This document shows positions 1 through 31,610 of a DNA stretch of 39,834 bases, piece by piece. The position numbers and the translations under genes were made by a program. The stretch lies in the IMG/VR virus record IMGVR_UViG_2713896832_000004; one strand, written 5' to 3'. The stretch is from a virus (lineage: Duplodnaviria > Heunggongvirae > Uroviricota > Caudoviricetes). The notes beneath the pieces are model-generated. The model made no database searches, was not told the DNA's origin, and worked only from the letters and a program-made list of their open reading frames with translations. Position 1 is the stretch's first letter, and each line of letters begins with the position of its first letter.

Positions 1-141
1 ACGCAGCGAATTGAGCGGCATAACCTGAATCTGAGGCAGCACCTGGCACGACTGGGACGGAAGTCGCTGTCGTTCTCAAAATCGGTGGAGCTGCATGACA
101 AAGTCATCGGGCATTATCTGAACATAAAACACTATCAATAA
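1..141 (+). CDS. insB: IS1 transposase InsB, C-terminal fragment (5' end outside window)
   Basis: Open frame from the window edge to TAA at 139..141; the translation matches the remembered InsB C-terminus. Confidence 0.75.
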
Positions 142-156
142 GTTGGAGTCATTACC
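1..156 (+). mobile_element. IS1 right-end fragment (3' part of insB plus terminal inverted repeat); the element continues left of the window
   Basis: Frame-1 translation of 1..141 reads [46 protein letters not shown]-stop, which matches the C-terminus of IS1 InsB as I remember it. The sequence then ends ...ctatcaataagttggagtcattacc at 156, the reverse complement of the IS1 terminal repeat GGTAATGACTCCAACTTATTGATAG. Confidence 0.8.
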
Positions 157-259
157 GAAGACGCAAAAAAAATAATATAATAACAAAAATCCTCCAGCCT
201 TGTAGGCCAGAGGATAAAATACTTAATTGAGGAAAATATCAGGGAAAAGTATTTCTGAT

Positions 260-1444
260 TTAACTTTCCCGGCTGGAGAGTGAATCAATGTAATCAGCGT
301 ACCATTGCATCATTTCACGGCGGCCATCGAGATACAGGGCATGATTATAGGTACCCCTGATGGAATTTTTATCCACATGAGCTAACTGCATTTCAATCCA
401 GGCGGAATTAAAGCCTTGTTCATGCAGAATTGTACTCATGGTGTGTCTGAAACCGTGCCCTGTGAGTCTTCCCTTATATCCAAGTAATTCAATTACTTGG
501 TTAATGCTTTCCTTACTAATTGGTTTGCGGGGATCATTTCTACCGATAAAGACTAGGGGATGATGTTTTGAGATTGGTTCAAGCTGCTTAAATAGCATAA
601 TGACCTGCTCAGAGAGCGGCACAATATGAGGTCGCTTCATCTTCATTACTTCTGCCGGGATCTCCCACAATTTTGTCTCAAAATCGATATCTTCCCAGCG
701 TGCAAAACGCAGTTCTTGTGTTCGTACGCCGGTTAACATAATGATCTGAGTAGCTGTCTTAGTGATTATACTTCCGGTATAACCCGCCAGATCGTTGAGG
801 AAGTGGGGAAGTTCATTAGCAGTAAGAAAGGGAAAATGTACTTTTTTCGGTGTAGCTAAAGCACTGGCAAGATCGGGGGCTGGGTTATAGTCTGCCCGGC
901 CAGTAACAATTGCATAGCGGAACACCTCACCACAGCGCTGGCGGACCTTGCGCATTTTCTCCAGAGCTCCACGTTTTTCCATTTTACGCAGTGCTTCCAG
1001 TAACTCCATTGGTTTGATTTCGGCAATAGGGCGCTTGCCAATGTAGGGAAAAATGTCTTTTTCAAAGGTATCAATGATTTCATCACGATAGCGTAATGAC
1101 CACCGATCAGCTTTTGACTGGTGCCATTCGCGAGCAATAGCCTCGAACGTATTTTTCAGACTCATTTGCTGCGCGATTTTTTCTTCCTTTTTTGCCTCCC
1201 CTGGATCGCCTCCAGCAGCGAGGAGTTTCCTGGCTTCACTGCGTTTCTCGCGAGCATCGGCTAACGTTACATCGGGGTATACGCCAATAGAAAGCATCTT
1301 TTCTTTACCAGCAAAGCGGTACTTCATGCGCCAGTATTTAGAACCATTAGTGTTAATCAGTAGATACATACCGCCGCCATCAGCAAGCTTATAGGGTTTG
1401 TCTTTGGGTTTTGCGGTTTTCACTTTGATATCGGTTAATGCCAT
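260..1444 (-). CDS. Tyrosine recombinase, P4-family integrase of a selC-associated genomic island
   Basis: 394-aa ORF with ATG at 1444..1442 and stop at 262..260. The C-terminal half carries the tyrosine-recombinase signature (…GHGFRHTMST…, …HVDKNSIRGTYNH…). It sits about 300 bp from the 3' end of tRNA-Sec, the typical layout for tRNA-integrating islands. Confidence 0.85.
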   Translation of the reverse strand: MALTDIKVKTAKPKDKPYKLADGGGMYLLINTNGSKYWRMKYRFAGKEKMLSIGVYPDVTLADAREKRSEARKLLAAGGDPGEAKKEEKIAQQMSLKNTFEAIAREWHQSKADRWSLRYRDEIIDTFEKDIFPYIGKRPIAEIKPMELLEALRKMEKRGALEKMRKVRQRCGEVFRYAIVTGRADYNPAPDLASALATPKKVHFPFLTANELPHFLNDLAGYTGSIITKTATQIIMLTGVRTQELRFARWEDIDFETKLWEIPAEVMKMKRPHIVPLSEQVIMLFKQLEPISKHHPLVFIGRNDPRKPISKESINQVIELLGYKGRLTGHGFRHTMSTILHEQGFNSAWIEMQLAHVDKNSIRGTYNHALYLDGRREMMQWYADYIDSLSSRES

Positions 1445-1743
1445 GACATCCTCCGGCTTTTGATGAATTCATCTTCCTGAGGGGGATTTCTGCCAGTAAC
1501 TAACCTGATACCCCCAATACACCCCTTGTATAACAAAGATATTGTTAAAAGCCGTTGTTATGTATCATATTTTTCCTATTATGGGGGTGCTTGTATTTCA
1601 ATAGGAAATAACACCCCCTAAAGTACCCCCAAAAGAAACTTGATATGGGGTGAAGTAGGTTGACCTCAGGATACAAATAAATACTGATATACAAGGGATT
1701 AGAAGAGATTTATTGACATTGGGAGAGTTCAGAAGAGGTAAAC

Positions 1744-1838
1744 TGGCGGAAGATCACAGGAGTCGAACCTGCCCGGGACCGCTGGCGGCCCCAACTGGAT
1801 TTGAAGTCCAGCCGCCTCACCGGAGACGACGATCTTCC
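1744..1838 (-). tRNA. selC: tRNA-Sec (selenocysteine, anticodon UCA)
   Basis: The reverse complement of 1744..1838 is GGAAGATCGTCGTCTCCGGTGAGGCGGCTGGACTTCAAATCCAGTTGGGGCCGCCAGCGGTCCCGGGCAGGTTCGACTCCTGTGATCTTCCGCCA, which is the 95-nt E. coli selC sequence as I remember it, including the encoded CCA. Confidence 0.95.
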
Positions 1839-2130: not shown

Positions 2131-3513
2131 ATGAAGAGTGAAGTGTTGTCCGTTAAAGAGAAAATTGGTTATGGCATGGGAGACGCCGCCAGCCACATTA
2201 TTTTCGATAACGTAATGTTATATATGATGTTCTTTTATACCGATATTTTTGGCATTCCTGCCGGTTTTGTCGGAACCATGTTTTTGGTCGCTCGTGCACT
2301 GGATGCGATTTCCGATCCTTGCATGGGGTTGTTGGCCGATCGAACGCGCTCTCGCTGGGGTAAATTTCGTCCGTGGGTACTGTTTGGCGCACTGCCATTC
2401 GGGATCGTCTGTGTACTGGCCTATAGCACGCCAGATCTCAGTATGAACGGCAAAATGATCTATGCAGCAATTACTTACACCCTACTTACCTTACTTTATA
2501 CCGTCGTCAATATCCCTTACTGCGCATTGGGTGGTGTAATCACCAATGACCCGACTCAGCGTATCTCGCTGCAATCCTGGCGTTTTGTGCTGGCGACCGC
2601 GGGAGGCATGCTTTCTACTGTTCTGATGATGCCACTGGTTAATTTAATTGGCGGTGATAATAAACCACTCGGTTTCCAGGGCGGTATCGCGGTCCTTTCC
2701 GTGGTGGCATTCATGATGCTGGCATTTTGTTTCTTCACCACTAAAGAACGCGTTGAAGCACCACCTACAACAACGTCTATGCGGGAAGATTTACGTGATA
2801 TCTGGCAAAACGACCAGTGGCGGATTGTCGGTTTACTAACCATTTTCAATATCCTGGCGGTGTGCGTACGCGGTGGGGCGATGATGTATTACGTCACATG
2901 GATTTTGGGCACGCCGGAAGTGTTTGTCGCTTTTCTCACCACTTATTGCGTGGGTAACCTGATTGGTTCCGCACTGGCAAAACCTCTGACCGACTGGAAA
3001 TGTAAAGTCACTATCTTCTGGTGGACGAACGCCCTGCTGGCAGTGATTAGCCTCGCGATGTTCTTTGTTCCCATGCAGGCCAGCATCACTATGTTTGTCT
3101 TCATCTTCGTGATTGGTGTGTTGCATCAACTGGTGACACCTATCCAGTGGGTAATGATGTCCGATACCGTCGACTACGGCGAGTGGTGCAATGGTAAACG
3201 CCTGACCGGGATCAGTTTTGCTGGCACGCTGTTTGTGCTCAAACTGGGGTTGGCCTTCGGCGGCGCTCTTATCGGCTGGATGCTGGCTTATGGCGGATAT
3301 GATGCGGCAGAAAAAGCGCAGAACAGCGCCACGATTAGCATCATTATTGCGCTATTCACGATTGTTCCGGCGATCTGTTATTTGCTGAGCGCGATTATCG
3401 CTAAACGCTACTACTCACTCACGACGCACAATCTGAAAACCGTTATGGAACAGCTGGCTCAGGGTAAACGCCGTTGCCAGCAACAATTCACCTCTCAAGA
3501 AGTGCAGAACTAA
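2131..3513 (+). CDS. yicJ: Putative sugar:cation symporter (GPH family) YicJ
   Basis: Track ORF 2074..3513. I prefer the internal ATG at 2131 (MKSEVLSVKEKIGYGMGD…) because AAGGAA lies 8 nt upstream and it gives the 460-aa length I recall for YicJ. Multi-TM permease-like sequence. Confidence 0.85.
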   Translation: MKSEVLSVKEKIGYGMGDAASHIIFDNVMLYMMFFYTDIFGIPAGFVGTMFLVARALDAISDPCMGLLADRTRSRWGKFRPWVLFGALPFGIVCVLAYSTPDLSMNGKMIYAAITYTLLTLLYTVVNIPYCALGGVITNDPTQRISLQSWRFVLATAGGMLSTVLMMPLVNLIGGDNKPLGFQGGIAVLSVVAFMMLAFCFFTTKERVEAPPTTTSMREDLRDIWQNDQWRIVGLLTIFNILAVCVRGGAMMYYVTWILGTPEVFVAFLTTYCVGNLIGSALAKPLTDWKCKVTIFWWTNALLAVISLAMFFVPMQASITMFVFIFVIGVLHQLVTPIQWVMMSDTVDYGEWCNGKRLTGISFAGTLFVLKLGLAFGGALIGWMLAYGGYDAAEKAQNSATISIIIALFTIVPAICYLLSAIIAKRYYSLTTHNLKTVMEQLAQGKRRCQQQFTSQEVQN

Positions 3514-7722: not shown

Positions 7723-9114
7723 TTACTGTTTTTCTGGTGGGAAAATCAGATTCAGCACGATGGCAGTAATACCGCCCGCGGCGATCCCGGAGGAGAGCAG
7801 GTTTTTCAGCCATTCAGGGGCAAACTGCAAAATCAGCGGCTGCTGAGACACGCCCAGACCAACCGCCAGCGACAGCGCGATAATCAGAATCGCCCGACGG
7901 TTCAGCGGCTCACGAGAAACGATACGCACACCGGAGGCGGCGATGGTGCCAAACATTACAAGCGTTGCGCCGCCCAGAACCGGTTCTGGAATGTGTTGTA
8001 CAAAACCGCTCACTGCCGGGAACAGACCCAGCACGATCAACATCAGCGCGACGACAAAACCGACATAGCGGCTGGCAACACCAGTCAACTGGATCACTCC
8101 GTTGTTTTGCCCGAAGCAGGAGTTCGGGAAGGTGTTAAACACCGCCGAAACAAACGAGTTCAGGCCGTTTGCCAGCACGCCGCCTTTCAGGCGTTTCATG
8201 TACAGCGGACCGGACACTGGCTGTTCGGAAACGTCAGAGGTCGCCGTGATATCGCCAATGGTTTCCAGCGAAGTGATCATAAAGACCAGCATCAGCGGCA
8301 GCAGCAGACTCCATTCAATGCCAAGACCGTAATAGAGCGGCGTTGGCACCATAATCAGTTCTTGCGTCATCGGTTCGTTGCTTTCTGGCAACATGCCCAT
8401 AAACCACGCCAGCGCATATCCGGCCGCCATCGCAATCACCAGTGAGGCCACGCGTAAGTAAGGGTTACGTTGACGGTTAAGCAGGATAATTAAGGCTAAG
8501 ACCACGCCTGCCAGCAGCAGATTTTTCGGTGCGCCGAAGGTGTTATCGCTCATGGCTGCGTAACCGCCGCCAATGGACGTTAACCCAACCTGAATTAGCG
8601 ACAGGCCGATAATCATCACCACAACGCCAGAAACCAGCGGCGTAATAATGCGGCGCGCCAGATGCAGAACGCGGGAGAGCACCATCTCGGTGCAACTTGC
8701 CAGCATCAACGTGCCGAACAAAGCCGCCATCATGGTAGGAACATCAGCACCACCGGTTTTCAGCGCGGTACCGCCCATAATCAGCGGGGCAACAAAGTTG
8801 AAGCTGGTGCCCTGAATAGACAACAGCCCGGAGCCAACCGGACCCCAGGCCTTAATTTGAATAATCGATGCCACACCGGAGGCAAACAGCGACATACTAA
8901 TAATGTGTTGCGTGTCTTGTGCCGGTAAACCCAGCGCCTGGCAGATTAATAGCGCTGGCGTGATCACCGCAACGAACATCGCCAGCAGATGCTGACAGGC
9001 GGCAAACAGGGTTTGAGGAAGCGGCGGACGATCTTCAAGACGGTAAATCAGTTCGCTGTTTTGAGTCTGCGCAACCGGTTGCGCATTTTCTGACTCGAGG
9101 GTGGAAACAGACAT
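7723..9114 (-). CDS. xanP: Xanthine permease (NCS2 family)
   Basis: Track ORF 7723..9123. The start [12 protein letters not shown]… at 9114 gives 463 aa; multi-TM NCS2-like sequence matching XanP (YicE) as remembered. Confidence 0.9.
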
Positions 9115-9393
9115 CGAAAACAATCCCGTGGTAGCAAAGCGGGCATTTTAGCTGACCGAAAGAGAAAAGCAAACGTTTGCCACATCCTCATCTAAATATT
9201 TAAATGAGATAAATGCACTTTTTTATATAACTTTTGGTATTTTTCTGCTTAAAATCCATGCCATTTGTTCATTAACAGCTGAGAATTTGACCCAGGAAAG
9301 CATAACTCGATACCCGTCATAGTTCATGAAGTTGCCACTGCGCGATGAAGTATGACGAGTATGAAAGAGTGATGCGGATACAAAGGAGTAACT

Positions 9394-10599
9394 ATGTTTC
9401 ATCTCGATACTTTAGCAACGCTTGTTGCCGCAACGCTGACGTTGCTGCTCGGGCGTAAGTTGGTCCATTCCGTCTCCTTTTTGAAGAAATACACCATACC
9501 GGAACCTGTTGCGGGTGGTTTGTTGGTGGCGCTGGCGCTACTAGTACTGAAAAAAAGCATGGGCTGGGAAGTCAACTTTGATATGTCCCTGCGCGATCCG
9601 TTAATGCTGGCTTTCTTCGCCACCATTGGCCTGAACGCCAACATTGCCAGTTTGCGTGCCGGTGGGCGTGTGGTTGGCATCTTCTTGATTGTGGTTGTTG
9701 GTCTGTTGGTGATGCAAAATGCCATTGGCATTGGTATGGCTAGCCTGTTAGGGCTTGATCCGCTGATGGGGCTGTTGGCCGGTTCTATTACGCTTTCCGG
9801 CGGTCACGGTACGGGCGCTGCGTGGAGTAAATTGTTCATTGAACGTTATGGCTTCACCAATGCGACGGAAGTGGCGATGGCCTGTGCAACGTTCGGTCTG
9901 GTGCTGGGCGGCTTGATTGGCGGTCCGGTGGCGCGCTATCTGGTGAAACACTCCACCACGCCGAACGGTATTCCGGATGACCAGGAAGTCCCGACGGCGT
10001 TTGAAAAGCCGGATGTGGGCCGCATGATCACCTCGCTGGTGCTGATTGAAACTATCGCGCTGATTGCTATCTGCCTGACGGTGGGGAAAATTGTTGCGCA
10101 ACTTTTGGCTGGCACTGCTTTTGAACTGCCGACCTTCGTCTGTGTCCTGTTTGTTGGCGTGATTCTGAGCAACGGTCTGTCAATGATGGGCTTTTACCGC
10201 GTCTTTGAGCGTGCGGTATCCGTGCTGGGTAACGTAAGCCTGTCGTTGTTCCTGGCGATGGCGCTGATGGGGCTGAAACTGTGGGAGCTGGCTTCGCTGG
10301 CGCTGCCGATGCTGGCGATTCTGGTGGTACAGACCATCTTCATGGCGTTGTATGCCATCTTCGTTACCTGGCGCATGATGGGCAAAAACTACGATGCGGC
10401 AGTGCTGGCTGCGGGTCACTGTGGTTTTGGCCTCGGTGCAACGCCAACGGCAATCGCCAACATGCAGGCGATCACTGAACGCTTTGGCCCGTCGCACATG
10501 GCGTTTTTGGTGGTGCCGATGGTCGGTGCGTTCTTTATCGATATCGTCAATGCGCTGGTGATTAAGCTGTATTTAATGTTGCCGATTTTTGCCGGTTAA
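9394..10599 (+). CDS. gltS: Sodium/glutamate symporter
   Basis: 401-aa polytopic membrane protein beginning MFHLDTLATLVAATLTLLLGRKLV…, divergent from xanP. Confidence 0.9.
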   Translation: MFHLDTLATLVAATLTLLLGRKLVHSVSFLKKYTIPEPVAGGLLVALALLVLKKSMGWEVNFDMSLRDPLMLAFFATIGLNANIASLRAGGRVVGIFLIVVVGLLVMQNAIGIGMASLLGLDPLMGLLAGSITLSGGHGTGAAWSKLFIERYGFTNATEVAMACATFGLVLGGLIGGPVARYLVKHSTTPNGIPDDQEVPTAFEKPDVGRMITSLVLIETIALIAICLTVGKIVAQLLAGTAFELPTFVCVLFVGVILSNGLSMMGFYRVFERAVSVLGNVSLSLFLAMALMGLKLWELASLALPMLAILVVQTIFMALYAIFVTWRMMGKNYDAAVLAAGHCGFGLGATPTAIANMQAITERFGPSHMAFLVVPMVGAFFIDIVNALVIKLYLMLPIFAG

Positions 10600-10601
10600 A
10601 A

Positions 10602-11468
10602 ATGAAAAAGCGTCGGAAGGAACCGGAAACGCTACGTGAACACTGTCGCCATATTTTTGGTGATGAGCCGCCAGTGCTCTGTGTATGGGAAACGGAATTT
10701 GATTACGCAGATGCCGAACTCAAGGCGCTGGCGGCTAAAGAGTGGCAGCAGATCAGCGAATGGGATTTGAGTGCTTACTATGTACTCAATCTCGTTTATA
10801 ACGAACCGATGCAAATAGAGTTGTTTCGCTATCTGTTTCCGCTCTGCCTGGCGCAATGGCATGAAACCATTTTAGCTGGCGGTTATGGTGATCACTTCGA
10901 AGAATCCTTAATGAAGGCATTGTGTCGGCCCTATCTCTGGCAGGAGATGATGAATGCTTCCCAACGCCAGCAGGTACGGCAATTTTTACTGGACACCGCG
11001 TTGCAGCGTATGGATAACGAGCGTGGTTTCAATAACGTTCTTTGCTGGCTGGCGGTGTTCAATACTCTGGGTGGGGCCGCGCCGTTAATTCGTTCTCTCT
11101 GGTCGCGCTGGTGGGCGCTGGATACGCCAGGAAAAGCGGTGTGTGCTATTCAGTATGCCGCGCATCTAATTTATCCCATAGAAGCCAATCCGTTATGGTC
11201 GCAAGAATGGATAGGCTGGGGGCATCCATTAGGCCATAAAGATGGCTGGTCCTCTGATAATCGCGCTTTTCTTCGCCAAATGTTAACACCTGAAATGATT
11301 GTGGCTGGCGTACAGGCAGCGGCTGAAATTCTGCGTGGTGAACCGGAAGGCGCAATGGCGGCGCGAATTGCACAGGATGCGTATGAGGCAATGGATATCC
11401 TCACTATCCAGATTGAAGATTTACTGCGTGACTTGTCTTGTGATGAGTCTGGTCATGCGTTGGAGTAA
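10602..11468 (+). CDS. Hypothetical protein, 288 aa, Trp-rich, soluble-looking, no recognisable domain
   Basis: ATG 3 nt after the gltS stop, and the stop codon overlaps the recG 3' end by 16 bp. Codon usage looks native (CTG, GCG, CCG, CGT rich). No family recognised by eye. Confidence 0.6.
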   Translation: MKKRRKEPETLREHCRHIFGDEPPVLCVWETEFDYADAELKALAAKEWQQISEWDLSAYYVLNLVYNEPMQIELFRYLFPLCLAQWHETILAGGYGDHFEESLMKALCRPYLWQEMMNASQRQQVRQFLLDTALQRMDNERGFNNVLCWLAVFNTLGGAAPLIRSLWSRWWALDTPGKAVCAIQYAAHLIYPIEANPLWSQEWIGWGHPLGHKDGWSSDNRAFLRQMLTPEMIVAGVQAAAEILRGEPEGAMAARIAQDAYEAMDILTIQIEDLLRDLSCDESGHALE

Positions 11469-13534
11469 CGTTCCGTCTCCGGCATCCAGCGTTCTATCAG
11501 GGCTTTTGCTTGTTGTGGGTAACGTTCGTGAATATGTCGCGCCAGGCGCTGAACTTCCGGGATCATCGCCTGATCGCGCAGTAAATCCGCCACTTTAAAT
11601 TCAGCATTACCCGTCTGACGCGTGCCTAACAATTCGCCAGGGCCGCGAATCTCCAGATCTTTTTGCGCAATCACAAAACCGTCGTTACTGTCGCGCAGCA
11701 CTTGCAGGCGAATTTGCGCCGTTTTGGAGAGCGGCGTTTTGTAGAGCAGCACGCAGTGAGAAGCCACCGCGCCACGACCTACGCGCCCGCGCAGCTGGTG
11801 TAACTGCGCTAGACCCAGACGCTCAGGGTTTTCGATAATCATCAGACTGGCGTTAGGCACATCAACGCCGACTTCAATAACGGTAGTGGCAACCAGCAGT
11901 TGTAGCTCACCTTGTTTAAACGACGCCATCACCGCCTGTTTCTCGGCTGGTTTCATCCGCCCGTGTACCAGGCCAACATTCAATTCTGGTAGCGCCAGTT
12001 TCAACTCTTCCCAGGTAGCTTCCGCCGCCTGCGCTTCCAGTAACTCTGACTCTTCAATCAACGTACAAACCCAGTACGCCTGACGACCTTCAGTCATGCA
12101 GGCGTGGCGCACGCGGTCAATGATGTCGGTACGGCGGGTATCAGGAATAGCGACCGTAGTCACTGGCGTGCGGCCTGGCGGCAGCTCATCTATCACCGAG
12201 GTATCGAGATCGGCATACGCCGTCATTGCCAGCGTGCGGGGGATCGGCGTGGCGGTCATGATCAACTGATGCGGATGGAAGCCCTGCTGCTGGCCTTTCT
12301 CCCACAATGCCAGACGCTGATGCACGCCAAAACGATGCTGTTCGTCGATAATCACCAGCGCCAGACCGTTAAACTGCACCTGTTCCTGGAAGATGGCGTG
12401 TGTACCGACAATCATCTGCACCTGACCGCTGGCGATGGCTTCCTGCTGTGCCAGTCGCGCTTTACCTTTCTGCTTACCGGCGAGCCAGCCCACTTCGATA
12501 CCGAGCGGTGCAAACCAGTTGCGGAAGTTATTGGCGTGCTGCTCGGCGAGTAATTCGGTTGGTGCCATCAGGGCCACCTGTTTGCCGTGGGCAATCGCAC
12601 GCAGCGCGGCGAGGGCGGCGACCAGTGTTTTACCGGAACCTACATCGCCCTGCACCAGGCGCATCATTGGAACATCCAGCGCCATATCATGCTCGATCTC
12701 CGCCACTACGCGTGCCTGTGCGCCCGTTGGCTTGAACGGTAAGGCGGCGAGGAGTTTATTTTTCAGCGCGTCATTGGCGCTCAGCGGCTGGGCATGAAAA
12801 CGCTGTGCTCCGGCACGTAAGGCTAACATGCTGAGGTTGTGCGCCAGCAGTTCTTCCAGAATCAGACGACGTTGCGCCGGATGCTGCCCGGTTTCCAGAT
12901 CGCTAAGCTGTAGCGTCGGCGGCGGGCGGTGCAAAGTGCGCAACGCTTCCGGTAGCGTCATCATTCCTTGTGACAGTTCCGGCGGCAGGAGTTCTTCAAT
13001 GGCGCAGGTGTCGAGCAGATCCAGCGCCTGGTCGGTTAATTTACGCAGCGTGGCCTGCTTTACGCCTTCCGTTGTTGGATAAACCGGCGTGAGCGTTTCC
13101 TGTAATTCTGGCGTGCTGAGATCGCCCTGCACGCGGTATTCCGGGTGGATCATCTCCGCACCATATTTACCGCGCTTTGCTTCGCCATAAGCCAGTACAC
13201 GGCGGCCCGTCGCCAGGCTATTTTTCATTGCCGCGCTGAAATTGAAAAAGCGCATGGTGAGGATGCCGGAACCGTCGCTGATCTGGCAGGTCATCATCCG
13301 CCGACCGCCGAAGGAGATATTGCAGTTCAGCACTTCGCCTTCCACCGTGGCATAAACGCCCGGCAGTAGTTCTCCGATGGGGTAGAGATGGGTGCGATCT
13401 TCGTAGCGCAGGGGAAGGTGTAAGAGTAGATCCTGCACGGTATGCAGGTTGATTTTCGCCAGTTTGTTACTAAGTGCTGCGCCAACGCCCGTTAGGGAAC
13501 TGAGTGGGACAGCATCTAACAGGCGACCTTTCAT
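11453..13534 (-). CDS. recG: ATP-dependent DNA helicase RecG
   Basis: Track ORF 11453..13567. The start MKGRLLDAVPLSSLTGVG… at 13534 gives 693 aa. Walker A (GDVGSGKT) and the DEQH box (IIDEQHRFG) are present. Confidence 0.95.
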   Translation of the reverse strand: MKGRLLDAVPLSSLTGVGAALSNKLAKINLHTVQDLLLHLPLRYEDRTHLYPIGELLPGVYATVEGEVLNCNISFGGRRMMTCQISDGSGILTMRFFNFSAAMKNSLATGRRVLAYGEAKRGKYGAEMIHPEYRVQGDLSTPELQETLTPVYPTTEGVKQATLRKLTDQALDLLDTCAIEELLPPELSQGMMTLPEALRTLHRPPPTLQLSDLETGQHPAQRRLILEELLAHNLSMLALRAGAQRFHAQPLSANDALKNKLLAALPFKPTGAQARVVAEIEHDMALDVPMMRLVQGDVGSGKTLVAALAALRAIAHGKQVALMAPTELLAEQHANNFRNWFAPLGIEVGWLAGKQKGKARLAQQEAIASGQVQMIVGTHAIFQEQVQFNGLALVIIDEQHRFGVHQRLALWEKGQQQGFHPHQLIMTATPIPRTLAMTAYADLDTSVIDELPPGRTPVTTVAIPDTRRTDIIDRVRHACMTEGRQAYWVCTLIEESELLEAQAAEATWEELKLALPELNVGLVHGRMKPAEKQAVMASFKQGELQLLVATTVIEVGVDVPNASLMIIENPERLGLAQLHQLRGRVGRGAVASHCVLLYKTPLSKTAQIRLQVLRDSNDGFVIAQKDLEIRGPGELLGTRQTGNAEFKVADLLRDQAMIPEVQRLARHIHERYPQQAKALIERWMPETERYSNA

Positions 13535-13539
13535 GGCAC

Positions 13540-14229
13540 TTACCCTGCAGCCTGCATAGTAGCCCACCAGTCGGCATCAGCTTCGATCTCGCCTTGCTGA
13601 TTGACGTGGGGATAAGGCAGGCCTTTGCGTTTTGCGACTTTCGCCAGCACCGGATAGCCGCCTTCAAACAACAGGCGTTGTTGCTCTGCTTCCGGCAACA
13701 TGCTGTTTTCACGCAGGTACATGCCTGCATTTTGCCGCTGACGCTGGGCTTCGTAAAGAATGAGGGCTGAGGCAACGGAAACATTCAGCGACTGCACCAT
13801 GCCGATCATCGGAATGATGATGTCCTGATCCGCCAGGGCCAATGCTTCCTGCGTGATGCCCGTTTTCTCCTGTCCCATCAAAATGCAGGTCGGGCGAGTG
13901 TAATCAATTTCGCGGAAATCGACAGCGTTATCAGAAAGATGGGTTGCCAGAATCTGCATGCCCTGGCCTTTGAGATGAGCGACGGCATCGCCAATGGTGC
14001 GGTGTGTTTTCACCTGTACCCAGCTGTTACTACCCGCCGCTGCCGAAGCCATGGTGCGCATGCGGCTACCAGGCCAGACGGCGTGAACTTCATGTACGCC
14101 AACGGCATCTGCGGTACGAATAATCGCAGAAACGTTATGAGGTTTGTGGACCTGCTCCATGCAGACGGTCAGATCAGGCTGCCGCCTGGCGAGCATTTCG
14201 CAGATGCGTGCATAACGTGTTGGGTTCAT
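13540..14229 (-). CDS. trmH: tRNA (guanosine18-2'-O)-methyltransferase
   Basis: 229-aa SpoU-family methyltransferase lying between spoT and recG, as in the spoT operon. Confidence 0.9.
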   Translation of the reverse strand: MNPTRYARICEMLARRQPDLTVCMEQVHKPHNVSAIIRTADAVGVHEVHAVWPGSRMRTMASAAAGSNSWVQVKTHRTIGDAVAHLKGQGMQILATHLSDNAVDFREIDYTRPTCILMGQEKTGITQEALALADQDIIIPMIGMVQSLNVSVASALILYEAQRQRQNAGMYLRENSMLPEAEQQRLLFEGGYPVLAKVAKRKGLPYPHVNQQGEIEADADWWATMQAAG

Positions 14230-14235
14230 AAAACA

Positions 14236-16344
14236 TTAATTTCGGTTTCGGGTGACTTTAATCACGTCTGGCATCACGCGGATTTTGCGCATGATATTCG
14301 CCAGATGCACACGGTCACGGGCGGTCAGACGAATAAAGGCGCTGTAGACGCGACCATCTTTCTCTTCCGTATTCAAACTTTGAATATTCGAAGTCGTGGT
14401 GTTAATTGCCGCCGTCAGGTTTGCCAGCGCGCCCTGATGATTGAACATCTCCACCTTGATTTCGGTGATGAACTCCTGCGCCGTCTCTTTATCCCATTCC
14501 ACAGCCATAAACTTCTCTGGCTCTTTCTGGTAGCCACGGATATTACGGCAGGATTCATGGTGGATCACCAGACCTTTACCGGGGCTGACGTGGGCGATAA
14601 TCGGGTCGCCAGGAATAGGGCGGCAGCATTTCGCAAAGGTGATCAGCACGCCATCGGCACCTTTAATGGGCAGATGTCCGTGGCTTTGGGTTGCCGGTGG
14701 AATGGAGGCGTCCCCATGTTGCAGATTTTTCGCGACCACCACGCTCATTGCGTTACCAAGTCCGATTTCTGCCAGCAGATCGTCAAGCGTTGCCAGCTTC
14801 ATGCGATCCAGCTCGCGCTGAATATTTTCCTGCGGGATTTCATTCAGCTTACGGCTACCACCCAAAGCATGGTTGAGCAGACGACGGCCCAGGCTTACAG
14901 AATCATCACGCTTGAGGTTTTTCAGCAACTGACGAATTTTGGCGCGCGCTTTTGAGCTAACGACAAAGTTCAGCCACGCGGCATTCGGGCGAGCGCCCGG
15001 TGCGGTAATGATTTCAACGGTTTGACCGCTGGTAAGCGGCTGCGACAGCGGGTAAGGCTGGCGGTCAACGCGTGCGCCCACGCAGGCATGACCGATATCG
15101 GTATGCACTGCATAAGCGAAGTCGACGGGCGTTGCACCGGCAGGCAGCTCGACAATTCGCCCTTCCGGTGTGAAAACGTAAATCTCATCCGGGAAGAGAT
15201 CGGATTTAACGCTCTCGATAAATTCAAACGAACTACCGGCGCTCTGTTGCAGCTCCAGCAGGCTTTGCATCCAGCGCTGGGCGCGGATTTGCGCGGTGGT
15301 GCTGGTTTCGCCGTGCTCTTTATAAGCCCAGTGCGCGGCAACACCCATCTCCGCCATCTGATCCATATCTTCGGTACGGATCTGGACCTCAACCGGCACA
15401 CCGTGCGGGCCGATCATCGAGGTGTGCAAAGACTGATAGCCGTTCGCTTTTGGAATGGCGATGTAGTCTTTCACGCGACCCGGACGCGGCTTGTACAGGC
15501 TATGCATTTGCCCGAGCACGCGATAACAGGTGTCAGAATCATTGACGATCACGCGGAAAGCGTAGATGTCCATGATTGAGTGAAAACGCTGCTCTTTGAG
15601 CACCATTTTGCAGTAAATCGAATAAAGATGCTTTTCGCGACCACTGACGCGGCACGGTATTCCCGCTTCCTGCAAACGCCCTTCGATTTCAGAGAGGATT
15701 TTTTGGATCATCTCTTTACGGTTGCCGCGCGCGGCTTTCACCACTTCTTTAATTACGCGGTAACGATTGGGATACAGCGCCTCAAAACCCAGCTCTTCGA
15801 GTTCGGTTTTAATGTGGTGGATACCTAAACGGTGCGCCAGCGGGCTATAAATTTCGAGAGTTTCACGGGCGATGCGGCGACGTTTGTCCGGGCGAAGTGA
15901 GCCCAGCGTGCGCATGTTGTGGGTACGGTCGGCAAGTTTGATGAGGATGACGCGGATATCCTGCACCATCGCCATAATCATCTTGCGAAAGTTTTCGGCC
16001 TGCGCCTCTTTCTTATCGCGGAACTTGAGTTTATCAAGTTTCGACACCCCCTCTACCAGCTCGGCGACGCTTTTACCAAAAAGCTGTTCCATATCCTGGT
16101 AGGTGGCGGGAGTATCTTCAATCACGTCATGCAGCAGCGCCGCCATCAGCGTTTCATAGTCGAGTTTCATCTCGGCCAGAATGCAGGCAACCGCTACCGG
16201 GTGCGTGATATAGGGTTCACCGCTTGAACGTGTTTGCCCCTCGTGAGCATCACGTGCAACGAGATACGCCTGCCGCAGACGCTTGATTTGGTCTTCCGGC
16301 AGGTAGGTTTGAATCAGTTGATTCAGGCTTTCAAACAGATACAA
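14236..16344 (-). CDS. spoT: Bifunctional (p)ppGpp synthetase/hydrolase SpoT
   Basis: 702 aa, begins MYLFESLNQLIQTYLPEDQIKRL… from a TTG start codon at 16344..16342, with HD hydrolase and RelA/SpoT synthetase regions. Confidence 0.95.
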   Translation of the reverse strand: MYLFESLNQLIQTYLPEDQIKRLRQAYLVARDAHEGQTRSSGEPYITHPVAVACILAEMKLDYETLMAALLHDVIEDTPATYQDMEQLFGKSVAELVEGVSKLDKLKFRDKKEAQAENFRKMIMAMVQDIRVILIKLADRTHNMRTLGSLRPDKRRRIARETLEIYSPLAHRLGIHHIKTELEELGFEALYPNRYRVIKEVVKAARGNRKEMIQKILSEIEGRLQEAGIPCRVSGREKHLYSIYCKMVLKEQRFHSIMDIYAFRVIVNDSDTCYRVLGQMHSLYKPRPGRVKDYIAIPKANGYQSLHTSMIGPHGVPVEVQIRTEDMDQMAEMGVAAHWAYKEHGETSTTAQIRAQRWMQSLLELQQSAGSSFEFIESVKSDLFPDEIYVFTPEGRIVELPAGATPVDFAYAVHTDIGHACVGARVDRQPYPLSQPLTSGQTVEIITAPGARPNAAWLNFVVSSKARAKIRQLLKNLKRDDSVSLGRRLLNHALGGSRKLNEIPQENIQRELDRMKLATLDDLLAEIGLGNAMSVVVAKNLQHGDASIPPATQSHGHLPIKGADGVLITFAKCCRPIPGDPIIAHVSPGKGLVIHHESCRNIRGYQKEPEKFMAVEWDKETAQEFITEIKVEMFNHQGALANLTAAINTTTSNIQSLNTEEKDGRVYSAFIRLTARDRVHLANIMRKIRVMPDVIKVTRNRN

Positions 16345-16362
16345 GGGCGACCCGCTTTGTGA

Positions 16363-16638
16363 TTAACGACGACCTTCAGCAATAGCGGTAACGGCTTGTA
16401 ATTCAGCGGCTTCCTGCTCTTGCTGTTCCTGGCGTTCGCGAACGTCGAGGATCTGGTTGTTGATCAGACCTTCTTCGATTTCGCGCAGCGCGATTACAGT
16501 GGTTTTATCGTTTTCTTCCGGTACCAGCGGATCCTTTCCGCCTACCTGCATCTGACGAGCGCGACGCGCGGCGACCAGTACCAGGTCAAAACGGTTACCA
16601 ATTTTCTCTACAGCGTCCTGAACAGTTACGCGTGCCAT
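16363..16638 (-). CDS. rpoZ: RNA polymerase omega subunit
   Basis: 91-aa [34 protein letters not shown]… immediately upstream of spoT. Confidence 0.95.
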
Positions 16639-16692
16639 ACTTAAAAAGCTCCACAGGTGAAGAAATGACTGGGCATGATACTGAAATCAGGT

Positions 16693-17440
<748 letters not shown>

Positions 17441-17459: not shown

Positions 17460-19866
<2,407 letters not shown>

Positions 19867-20156
19867 GGTTCTCTCCCTAAAAATCTGTCTGGCAGGGTAG
19901 CGATTTGTGCGTATTGTCACGATTGAGATTTTTTAAGGTGAGAGGAAATTGATAACTTGTAGTTATGTGAAATCGCTATTTTCTGTAGCGTAGATGCATT
20001 CTTCTGACTTCTTGTCTGAGAAAATGCATAAGAAAAAATAGGTTAAAACTGAGGGGGGAAAAGAAAGGTGCAATGTTTAGCCATTGTGTTCACTGCACCT
20101 GGACCTTGGCTTACGCATCGGGTGTCTCAATCAACAAAAAGAGTTTTTCGTTTCTG

Positions 20157-23691: not shown

Positions 23692-24651
23692 ATGGATGCT
23701 ACCCGGACAACCCTTCTGGCGCTCGATTTGTTCGGCTCGCCGGGCTGGAGCGCCGATAAAGAAATACAGCGACTGCATGCGCTCAGTAATCATGCCGGAC
23801 GCCATTACCGACGCATTATTCTTTCTAAACGCCACGGTGGTCAGCGGCTGGTGTTAGCCCCTGATTACTTGCTCAAAACCGTACAGCGCAACATTCTTAA
23901 GAACGTCCTTTCACAATTTCCGCTTTCCCCTTTTGCTACAGCCTACCGACCAGGTTGCCCAATCGTCAGCAACGCGCAGCCACACTGCCAACAGCCGCAG
24001 ATCCTGAAACTCGATATCGAAAACTTTTTCGATAGCATTAGCTGGTTACAGGTCTGGCGTGTGTTTCGCCAGGCCCAGTTGCCACGTAATGTGGTAACCA
24101 TGCTGACCTGGATTTGTTGTTATAACGACGCGTTACCGCAGGGGGCACCAACTTCGCCAGCCATTTCCAATCTTGTGATGCGCCGTTTTGATGAACGCAT
24201 AGGGGAATGGTGTCAGGCTCGGGGAATTACCTACACCCGCTACTGCGATGACATGACCTTTTCAGGTCACTTCAATGCCCGCCAGGTTAAAAATAAAGTG
24301 TGCGGATTGTTAGCGGAGCTGGGCCTGAGCCTCAATAAACGCAAAGGCTGCCTGATAGCTGCCTGTAAGCGCCAGCAAGTAACCGGGATTGTTGTTAATC
24401 ACAAGCCACAGCTTGCCCGTGAAGCGCGCCGGGCGCTGCGTCAGGAGGTGCATTTGTGCCAAAAATATGGCGTTATTTCGCATCTTAGTCATCGTGGTGA
24501 ACTTGATCCTTCTGGCGATCTCCACGCACAGGCAACGGCGTATCTTTATGCTTTGCAGGGAAGAATAAACTGGTTATTGCAAATCAACCCTGAGGATGAG
24601 GCCTTTCAACAGGCGAGAGAGAGTGTAAAGCGAATGCTGGTTGCATGGTAA
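23692..24651 (+). CDS. Retron-type reverse transcriptase (RT-only retron, Ec107-like)
   Basis: Track ORF 23680..24651 (GTG). I prefer the ATG at 23692 (GGAG 6 nt upstream), giving 319 aa. RT motifs are present: LDIENFFDSI, QGAPTSPAISNL, YTRYCDDMTF (YxDD box), and the retron-typical VTGIVVN. Confidence 0.85.
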   Translation: MDATRTTLLALDLFGSPGWSADKEIQRLHALSNHAGRHYRRIILSKRHGGQRLVLAPDYLLKTVQRNILKNVLSQFPLSPFATAYRPGCPIVSNAQPHCQQPQILKLDIENFFDSISWLQVWRVFRQAQLPRNVVTMLTWICCYNDALPQGAPTSPAISNLVMRRFDERIGEWCQARGITYTRYCDDMTFSGHFNARQVKNKVCGLLAELGLSLNKRKGCLIAACKRQQVTGIVVNHKPQLAREARRALRQEVHLCQKYGVISHLSHRGELDPSGDLHAQATAYLYALQGRINWLLQINPEDEAFQQARESVKRMLVAW

Positions 24652-31247: not shown

Positions 31248-31598
31248 AGTAAATAGCTGACTTATGGATGTGCTGGGGATTCTATGTATTTAGCTGTGGC
31301 TTTACCATTACTTTTCCCGTTTTTGACTTAAATAGCAATTTACCCGCCAATTCTTGCTGAACATCTATACTTTTTTTGTATTTTTATGCGATTCATTGAT
31401 TTCTGCTGTACGTGCAGGAAGGAATCGCAGAGCAACAGTGAAAGAATATGGTTGCTAATGATTTTATTTGATTGATTTCTTTATTGAAAATCAACAATGT
31501 GCTTAAAAATCATTCGGGTCGGATTGCCGCGAAAGAAGTGATACACTAGCGCGTCAATATCAGTGCGGTATCAGTATTCAGGTAGCTGTTGAGCCTGG

Positions 31599-31610
31599 GG
31601 CGGTAGCGTG
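31599..31610 (+). promoter_or_regulatory. ops element (RfaH recruitment site) in the waaQ operon leader
   Basis: GGCGGTAGCGTG found about 50 bp upstream of the waaQ start, within the long AT-rich divergent waaA/waaQ leader. Confidence 0.6.

Follow-up and report, generated by a model that had tools for sequence, protein, structure and literature searches.

The window analyzed in this work is a stretch of 39,834 nucleotides, the left edge of which (positions 1 to 1838) holds the tRNA-Sec gene selC, a tyrosine integrase gene, and the end of an IS1 element (Table 1). This layout is no chance pattern: over its first 22,100 bases, the window matches NZ_CP033401.1 with 0 mismatches. The exact tRNA-Sec of the original prediction was borne out by ARAGORN, which assigned it the anticodon UCA, by Rfam model RF01852 (83.8 bits, with a gathering score of 47), and by comparison with selC of Escherichia coli K-12, with which 95 of 95 positions are identical.

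Table 1. Features at the left edge of the window
Feature	Position	Strand	Basis or remark
IS1, right-hand 156 bp	1..156	+	InsB C-terminus, terminal inverted repeat at 134-156
Integrase 3' flank	157..259	-	terminator-like hairpin and T-run at 215..189 (-)
P4-type (CP4-like) tyrosine integrase, 394 aa, intact	260..1444	-	ORF, Pfam domains, catalytic residues
Integrase-proximal att arm and int upstream (promoter) region	1445..1743	-	7 putative arm-type repeat cores
24-nt att core = selC 3' end	1744..1767	-	exact copy at the distal island boundary
selC, tRNA-Sec (UCA), intact, integration target	1744..1838	-	ARAGORN, Rfam, K-12 identity

The integrase gene had been described as intact, located about 300 bp from the tRNA gene and reading away from it, and this description holds: the ORF starts with ATG 299 bp from the tRNA 3' end, is oriented away from it, and is of full length, without frameshift. 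The encoded protein has an N-terminal Arm-DNA-bind_3 domain (DUF4102, PF13356), followed by a SAM-like core-binding domain and a C-terminal catalytic domain; the matches to Arm-DNA-bind_3, Phage_int_M (PF22022), and Phage_integrase (PF00589) are all well above their cut-offs, and the PDB matches correspond to the N-terminal and core-binding domains of CP4-like integrases. The catalytic residues R241, H330, R333, H356, and Y366 are all present, each of them aligned to an identical residue in P4 Int, so no inactivation is seen at these positions. Comparison with the integrases of known selC islands, which had been suggested along with the original prediction, returned amino acid sequence identities of 95% with IntI of PAI I536 and of 96% with the O157:H7 homolog, whereas 45% identity was obtained with P4 Int (over 405 aligned positions) and 40% with IntA of K-12. 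The closest phage integrases, of the Sf6/IntS type or from Klebsiella or Erwinia phages, are only about 50% identical; the island described below is therefore not a recognizable prophage. The gene is followed by the terminator-like hairpin listed in Table 1, which was found in a terminator scan and is a consensus match only. No minus-strand sigma-70 promoter was found upstream of int in a simple promoter scan, and the same scan gave two plus-strand matches, a number below chance expectation. Among 5,426 genomes, int was detected in 1,503.

The 24 nucleotides at the 3' end of selC, TGGCGGAAGATCACAGGAGTCGAA, are repeated exactly 26,613 bp to the left, which is the distal direct repeat that was to be sought there according to the original prediction. 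No match was obtained in 100 shuffles, and no further copies of the repeat were found inside the island. Past the distal repeat, the sequence is colinear with the selC-setC empty site of K-12, up to and through the repeat, and the DNA between the repeats is accessory, consisting of IS elements, a glycan cluster, and CP4-type genes (YeeU/CbtA, RadC-like, DUF4942, and others). A 24-bp selC repeat is also known from other selC islands (PMC6174562). Positions 1 to 1838 thus very probably represent the integrase-proximal edge of a 26.6-kb island that was site-specifically recombined into the 3' end of selC, and the accessory island with cargo to the left that had been predicted is indeed present, extending 26.6 kb leftward in identical ST410-type E. 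coli genomes. The high prevalence of int is the sole support for the opposite reading, according to which there is no island, selC being flanked by an integrase and IS1 that belong to the ordinary core genome. This reading is refuted by the colinearity with K-12 up to the repeat and by the contiguous empty site, with selC joined directly to the setC-side sequence, in 2,462 of the 5,426 genomes (the distal junction is present in 726 of the 5,426); the plasmid-derived cargo with its GC content of 38% equally argues against it, and we give it practically no credence. The island is a further member of the well-known selC family with P4-type integrases, which includes PAI I536 and the LEE-associated element of O157:H7. 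Such selC islands are textbook genome plasticity in E. coli and Shigella, and the boundary itself therefore teaches nothing new.

According to the mechanism that we propose, the integrase would recombine the 24-nt core common to the tRNA 3' end and the element, which would regenerate an intact selC and place a direct repeat of these 24 nt at the opposite end of the island. The reconstructed empty site was matched at 1300 of 1300 positions in several genomes. One of these strains with a perfect empty site shows 1 difference from the window in 20,657 bases of right flank and is identical over the 643 bp of setC-side flank tested, this left flank having been compared by a 1300-bp junction query and protein accessions only. 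Given a relative that is one base apart in 20.6 kb and whose site is perfectly empty, the site-specific gain or loss is recent; the relative shows that one of these events took place, without telling which of the two. It is conceivable that this pattern of presence and absence in close relatives arose instead by homologous recombination, through import of a selC-spanning segment from another strain and with no integrase-mediated move. Recombination was reported to be a major driver of the emergence of the ST410 clone (PMC10786849), and flanks that are highly conserved among many E. coli would support such an exchange. However, an incoming segment would usually bring flanking SNPs, whereas the flanks of the island-free relative are as good as identical on both sides, and the 24-nt core is exactly where the junctions fall. 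We thus consider homologous import unlikely and retain the site-specific event.

The region between int and selC contains 7 copies of the core motif ACCCC(C)/GGGG(G), at approximately 1481, 1511, 1522, 1583, 1614, 1626, and 1647, including two pairs with a spacing of 11 to 12 bp. In this integrase-proximal arm, ACCCC occurs 6 times (0.23 expected; 0 of 20,000 shuffles reached 6) and ACCCCC 4 times (0.015 expected). Paired P4-like repeats of the form ACCCCC(A/T) are present on both arms of the island, and the annotated arm repeats of the P4 attP agree with them in core and in 12-bp pairing. To judge from these sequence features, the repeats are likely to be arm-type binding sites for the N-terminal domain of Int, and we infer that Int would bind to them. 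Between selC and int, the intergenic sequence shares about 90% identity with that of PAI I536, 6 of the 7 repeat copies are unchanged in strains 536 and 50579417, and PAI I536 has kept arm repeats on both of its arms; this conservation among islands could result from shared ancestry rather than from function. In strain 536, IntI autorepression has been measured and an IHF site of the PintI promoter published (PMC7286903). Since the ACCCCC repeats are also located upstream of int, they can account for this autorepression by the 95% identical IntI, and in their conserved form they offer a concrete and testable explanation of the published behavior of that promoter. Within 1445-1743, no match to the exact IHF consensus WATCAANNNNTTR was found; the only one nearby is inside IS1.

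The window opens with 156 bp from the right end of IS1, including the terminal inverted repeat GGTAATGACTCCAACTTATTGAT, and the annotated end of the IS1 transposase coding sequence corresponds to window position 141. Of the IS1 fragment originally predicted, the right end with the InsB C-terminus and terminal repeat stood, but it is a fragment only by the cut of the window: in the 100% identical source genome, the element is complete, with 768 bp (positions 19389-20156 of locus L001) and both inverted repeats (L001 19389-19411 and 20134-20156), and is annotated as an IS1 family transposase with programmed frameshift (InsAB'). A 9-bp IS1 target duplication was not found in the flanks, GACACGATG versus GAAGACGCA, which is consistent with one end of a larger IS1-bounded module or with a rearrangement product. 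The exact IS1-int junction is present in 231 of the 5,426 genomes, and in genomes without this IS1 the homology starts exactly at window position 157, at about 97% identity. In other lineages, a TPR/LacI/MFS/GH31 module neighbors int. Rather than a simple insertion, this IS1 forms the outer end of a plasmid-derived module that is bounded by IS1.

The island is riddled with IS1, IS5, and IS66 copies as well as pseudogenes, and its only cargo other than mobile elements is a plasmid-derived cluster for polysaccharide export and synthesis. This IS1-bounded cluster of 9 kb encodes proteins with Wzm, Wzt_C, GT4, and WsaF domains, together with proteins of 676 and 705 aa without Pfam domain. It shares 99.4 to 99.7% identity (around 99.5%) with DNA on IncX5 and other enterobacterial plasmids, where the homology is likewise bounded by IS1, and is clone-restricted among E. 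coli chromosomes. No swapped or inverted target duplications were found between the two IS1 copies of the cargo, and a composite-transposon origin cannot be confirmed by target duplication because the other outer IS1 end has been destroyed by IS5. The island is thus a decayed mosaic, in which the ancestral genes directly after the int terminator were replaced. The replacement is a module with two inverted IS1 copies at its ends, carrying the Wzm/Wzt ABC-transporter and glycosyltransferase cluster, and this glycan module has displaced the integrase-proximal part of the ancestral island.

Whether such a mosaic may have remained excisable is, on the available sequence, an evenly balanced matter. 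Excision is plausible because the precise excision of PAI I536 depends on IntI, the 95% identical homolog (PMC7286903). Also in favor of excision competence are the intact state of Int and of the cis sites and the perfect empty site in a near-identical strain. Somewhat less probable is that the island is fixed and immobile, its int ORF being intact and excision having been lost when an IS1-mediated rearrangement removed integrase-proximal genes, including any recombination directionality factor; the island-free relatives would then never have acquired the island. A directionality factor of the AlpA, Vis, or Xis type is common in this family and not defining. With K-12 AlpA and P4 Vis as tblastn queries, no credible homolog of an AlpA- or Vis-type excisionase was found in L001 1-21900, as expected of a fixed island, and the best match, of 19 aa with an E value of 0.009, is located within an IS66 transposase; a more divergent factor may nevertheless be present. 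The distal 5 kb of the island is, as judged from annotation only, fully taken up by other annotated genes. Loss of mobility would also fit with the IS1 that abuts the int terminator without target duplication, at a position where other genes follow int in other lineages, with the IS copies and pseudogenes throughout the island, and with the retention of the identical junction in 231 genomes. However, both att cores are exact and the paired repeats have been kept on both arms, and the empty site of the strain with 1 SNP in 20.6 kb is perfect. Furthermore, the inspected neighbors of int in PAI I536 and other lineages are also devoid of an AlpA-like gene, yet PAI I536 excises precisely.

Clear similarities exist between this island and PAI I536 of the uropathogenic E. 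coli 536. Apart from the selC target, the integrase, and the upstream repeats, the two share an identical paired repeat on the distal arm and the same type of distal module (antirestriction, JAB/RadC-like, DUF987, YeeU/CbtA, DUF5983, DUF957, and DUF4942). They differ in the direct repeat, which has 16 bp in PAI I536 and 24 here, and in the genes downstream of int, namely, methyltransferase and HNH genes in PAI I536 and the IS1-bounded glycan module here; in addition, excision of PAI I536 was measured (PMC7286903), whereas that of the present island is putative. PAI I536 has a size of 77 kb and carries alpha-haemolysin and fimbriae (PMC7545054). Another example is the selC/LEE integrase of O157:H7, which at the DNA level is 89.5% identical but is adjoined by a P4-like satellite prophage. 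The integrase of SHI-2 of Shigella is almost identical to that of LEE, and SHI-2 is rich in IS remnants (PMC7545054). Both LEE and SHI-2, the latter likened here by description only, have a different cargo, namely, a type III secretion system and aerobactin, respectively. None of haemolysin, fimbriae, type III secretion system, or aerobactin was found among the annotated genes of the island. With phage P4, the integrase has the domain architecture and catalytic residues in common, and P4 also integrates at a tRNA 3' end, with arm repeats of CCCCC core that form 12-bp tandem pairs to either side of its att core; however, its target is a leucine tRNA gene, and it encodes Vis as well as replication and helper-exploitation genes, none of which is present in the island. 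Similar by description are GIselC17584/1 and other "CP4-int" selC islands of LEE-negative STEC, with a 24-bp distal selC repeat, a CP4-type integrase, a mosaic make-up, Ag43, KlcA, and a type IV toxin-antitoxin, whereas their size of about 50 kb and their cargo are, by description, different (PMC6174562). With the named islands PAI I536, LEE, and SHI-2, the present island has no more in common than its integration module and its distal CP4-type module, and it is therefore a relative, but no member, of any named PAI.

As to the cargo, no discussion of the cluster was found in the ST410 literature searched. There is no mention of a selC island in the main ST410 genomics paper (PMC10786849); a literature search combining ST410 and selC gave nothing relevant, and a search by strain name returned plasmid papers only. 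It is a speculative and rather improbable scenario that conjugative IncX5-type plasmids of environmental Citrobacter, Enterobacter, or Serratia were the source from which the cluster entered the selC island of the carbapenem-resistant ST410 H24RxC clone, and that its product there is a second, undescribed surface glycan, to which the clone would owe part of its success, for example, by phage or immune evasion. In this scenario, the module could also be lost or transferred in one piece, being situated in an island whose integrase and att sites are intact. A contig of a "Pluralibacter" metagenome-assembled genome with a 100% identical Wzt has the same IS1-cargo junction, beside Tn3 and mer genes; as it may stem from a plasmid or from E. 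coli and have been mis-binned, we do not take this contig as evidence for a donor species. The island variant is characteristic of one sublineage within a high-risk clinical clone, and because an almost identical strain is without the island, it is a possible typing marker and could provide a naturally occurring test of gain or loss by the integrase.

The 3' end of selC recurs as an exact 24-nt copy, TGGCGGAAGATCACAGGAGTCGAA, directly past the DUF4942 gene, so that the distal direct repeat anticipated for this island exists, at 26,613 bp from the copy at selC. The repeat gave no matches in 100 shuffles, and no further copies were found within the island. Between setC and the end of the distal repeat the sequence can be aligned colinearly to the selC-setC interval of K-12, after which the two diverge abruptly. 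Because the repeat is exact and the K-12 colinearity ends there, the island is a clean insertion, by site-specific recombination, into the 3' end of selC. This 24-bp repeat has also been reported from other selC islands (PMC6174562), and the distal junction is common to 726 genomes. As the original prediction held, the window starts inside the island and the cargo lies to the left, where IS elements, a glycan cluster and CP4-type genes are annotated. Leftward from the integrase gene (int), the order is IS1, two degenerate IS5-family genes, a six-gene cluster (GT4 glycosyltransferase, ABC-2 permease, ABC ATPase with Wzt_C, 705-aa protein, WsaF-like glycosyltransferase and 676-aa protein), a second, inverted IS1, and an IS5 plus an IS66-family element. 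The CP4-type genes follow, namely, YagK/YfjJ-like, zinc-ribbon proteins, a frameshifted hha, fragments of a GTPase, of Ag43 and of an antirestriction gene, a JAB/RadC-like gene, DUF987, a YeeU/CbtA toxin-antitoxin pair, DUF5983, DUF957 and, at the distal end, DUF4942.

Features of the island and of the window, with their positions
Feature	Position	Strand	Details
IS1 right end	window 1-156		terminal inverted repeat 134-156
Hairpin	window 189-215	-	12-bp stem and T-run
Integrase ORF (int)	window 1444->260	- (same as tRNA)	394 aa; ATG start, 299 bp past tRNA 3' end
tRNA-SeC (selC)	window 1744-1838	-	anticodon UCA; ARAGORN
ORF, hypothetical	window 10602-11468	+	866 bp; between gltS and recG
ligB	window ~17625-19252	+	annotated frameshifted
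Reverse transcriptase	window 23692-24651	+	319 aa; between pyrE and slmA; PADLOC best match RT_Ec107-like, 437 bits
JUMPstart RNA element (RF01707)	window 31572-31610	+	Rfam, 55 bits; upstream of waaQ (rfaQ) LPS-core (waa) operon
Glycan cargo	L001 (source-genome locus) 8244-17426		outside window, 2.6-11.8 kb left of its base 1; between inverted IS1 copies
RhuM-family pseudogene fragment	L002 (distal-boundary locus) 41161-41289		between setC and distal repeat
Distal 24-nt repeat	L002 41368-41391		

With respect to the distal repeat, the RhuM-family fragment is on the "core" side; island-free K-12 carries it too, as yicT (2926-3057 of the K-12 locus, L003). In Salmonella SPI-3, rhuM adjoins selC. 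The fragment could be left over from an earlier insertion at selC that is common to E. coli.

The predicted tRNA-Sec was recovered by ARAGORN and by the Rfam tRNA-Sec model, which matches window 1748-1838 with 83.8 bits, the gathering score being 47, and it is identical to K-12 selC at 95 of 95 positions. Bases 1-22,100 of the window show no mismatches to E. coli WCHEC020031 (NZ_CP033401.1), and bases 1-2100 are 100% identical in 25 of 25 complete genomes among the matches listed, including 020026 and 19-7, which served as ST410 B4/B5-H24RxC references in one study (PMC10786849). The integrase has the expected length and distance from the tRNA, and it can be called P4-like and intact, as had been proposed, since it combines the three domains of P4-type tyrosine integrases (Arm-DNA-bind_3, Phage_int_M and Phage_integrase) with 45% amino acid identity to phage P4 Int and retains R241, H330, R333, H356 and Y366, each aligned to the same residue in P4 Int; no inactivating catalytic change was detected. 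Its identity at the amino acid level is 95% to IntI of PAI I536, 96% to an O157:H7 homolog (89.5% at the nucleotide level), about 50% to the nearest phage integrases and 40% to K-12 IntA (CP4-57). The gene was found at at least 80% of its length in 1,503 of 5,426 complete E. coli genomes, and at at least 99% identity in about 930, including O104:H4, ST131 EC958 and one E. coli B strain. The hairpin 45 bp past the int stop codon is likely to be the int terminator; the IS1 end lies just 33 bp beyond it.

The 299-bp spacer between selC and int (39% GC) contains ACCCC six times, both strands counted together, against 0.23 expected from the remaining window, a count equaled in none of 20,000 shuffles, and ACCCCC four times, against 0.015 expected; with a more degenerate CCCCC run near the int start, the total rises to seven. 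Two motif pairs in the spacer have a spacing of 11-12 bp, and the distal arm carries one pair, TAACCCCCATAA/GAACCCCCAAAT, about 55 bp from the core. These motifs share both core and layout with the attP arm repeats of phage P4, which are annotated in GenBank as 12-bp tandem pairs on either side of the core (GATGCCCCCAAT/TATGCCCCCAAT and ATATGCCCCCTT/TTGTGCCCCCAC). In strain 536, the spacer shows about 90% identity, with six of the seven motifs unchanged, and PAI I536 bears at its distal end an identical motif pair at an equal distance from its 16-bp repeat. The ACCCC-type motifs are thus putative arm-type sites, to which the N-terminal domain of Int would bind.

The element would integrate, and may excise, through Int-catalyzed recombination of the 24-nt cores, helped by arm-site binding and host IHF. 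In PAI I536, loss is precise, integration and excision require the P4-like integrase that the island itself encodes, the intI promoter is strongly repressed by IntI, and IHF binds upstream of intI, stabilizing the island (PMC7286903). Arm repeats across the int upstream region could provide a simple physical basis for this autorepression. Int, both cores (exact) and both arms are intact in the present island. A hypothetical empty site built from the strain's own two flanks was matched at 1300 of 1300 positions in several genomes. One of these, UK_Dog_Liverpool, differs from the window right of selC at 1 of 20,657 bases, so the island state was altered very recently, by gain or loss, at precisely the att core. 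Neither an AlpA- nor a Vis-type excisionase was found by tblastn of K-12 AlpA and P4 Vis against L001 1-21900 or by annotation in the distal 5 kb, and we consider the chances evenly balanced that the island is competent to excise.

Of the IS1 fragment proposed at the window edge, the right end is present, but it is a fragment only through the window cut, a complete 768-bp copy being found in NZ_CP033401.1. This copy is not a simple insertion, since it has no 9-bp target duplication. The IS1-int junction occurs in only 231 genomes, and in lineages with the integrase but without this IS1 the homology begins exactly at window 157. In the two IS1-less genomes inspected (L004 and L005), int is followed by a TPR protein, a LacI-family regulator, an MFS transporter, a GH31 glycosidase and ykgR. 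Beyond the TPR/LacI/MFS/GH31 module, strain E4 has SSB and F-type TrbC transfer genes, which suggests a larger, possibly conjugative selC element.

The glycan cluster, which encodes Wzm, Wzt (with its Wzt_C domain), the GT4 and WsaF-like glycosyltransferases and the 676- and 705-aa proteins, neither of which has a Pfam match, has a GC content of 38%. Among E. coli chromosomes, it is confined to about 190-200 genomes (identity of at least 99%). Plasmids from Citrobacter, Serratia, Enterobacter and E. coli, one of them a conjugative IncX5, carry it with 99.4-99.7% identity. The plasmid homology covers L001 8244-17426, beginning within the island's inner IS1, and another IS1 lies at the plasmid's far side. 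Given this identity, the GC content and the IS1 bounds in both island and plasmid, the cargo is an IS1-bounded module of plasmid origin that took the place of the integrase-proximal portion of an older selC island, and the window IS1 is its outer end. An identical IS1-cargo junction (36-mer) and a 100%-identical Wzt were also seen in NZ_JAFAGS010000139.1, labeled as a Pluralibacter sp. MAG, with a Tn3-family transposase, a resolvase and a MerA-like gene on the other side of the junction; this is probably a plasmid or mis-binned contig and adds a third setting for the module.

On all available sequence tests, the element belongs to the selC-integrated islands with CP4/P4-type integrases. Membership in PAI I536, LEE, SHI-2 or Tia-PAI was rejected because none of their cargo is present among the annotated genes. 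A description of this particular variant was not found in the searchable literature, a hint that it may be new. In O157:H7 BB24-1, a P4-like satellite prophage (primase, Icd-like, delta-like and psu-like) lies upstream of a 96%-identical integrase, with an IS3-family element and a decayed CbtA/YeeU module on its other side, which looks like elements in tandem.

Elsewhere in the window, the position of the reverse transcriptase fits retron Ec107, which takes the place of a short palindrome between pyrE and ttk; for the msr/msd RNA expected nearby, there was no Rfam match at the gathering threshold. The JUMPstart element is placed as expected for the waaQ locus. The hypothetical ORF overlaps the recG 3' end, and ligB is likewise annotated as frameshifted in island-free relatives.
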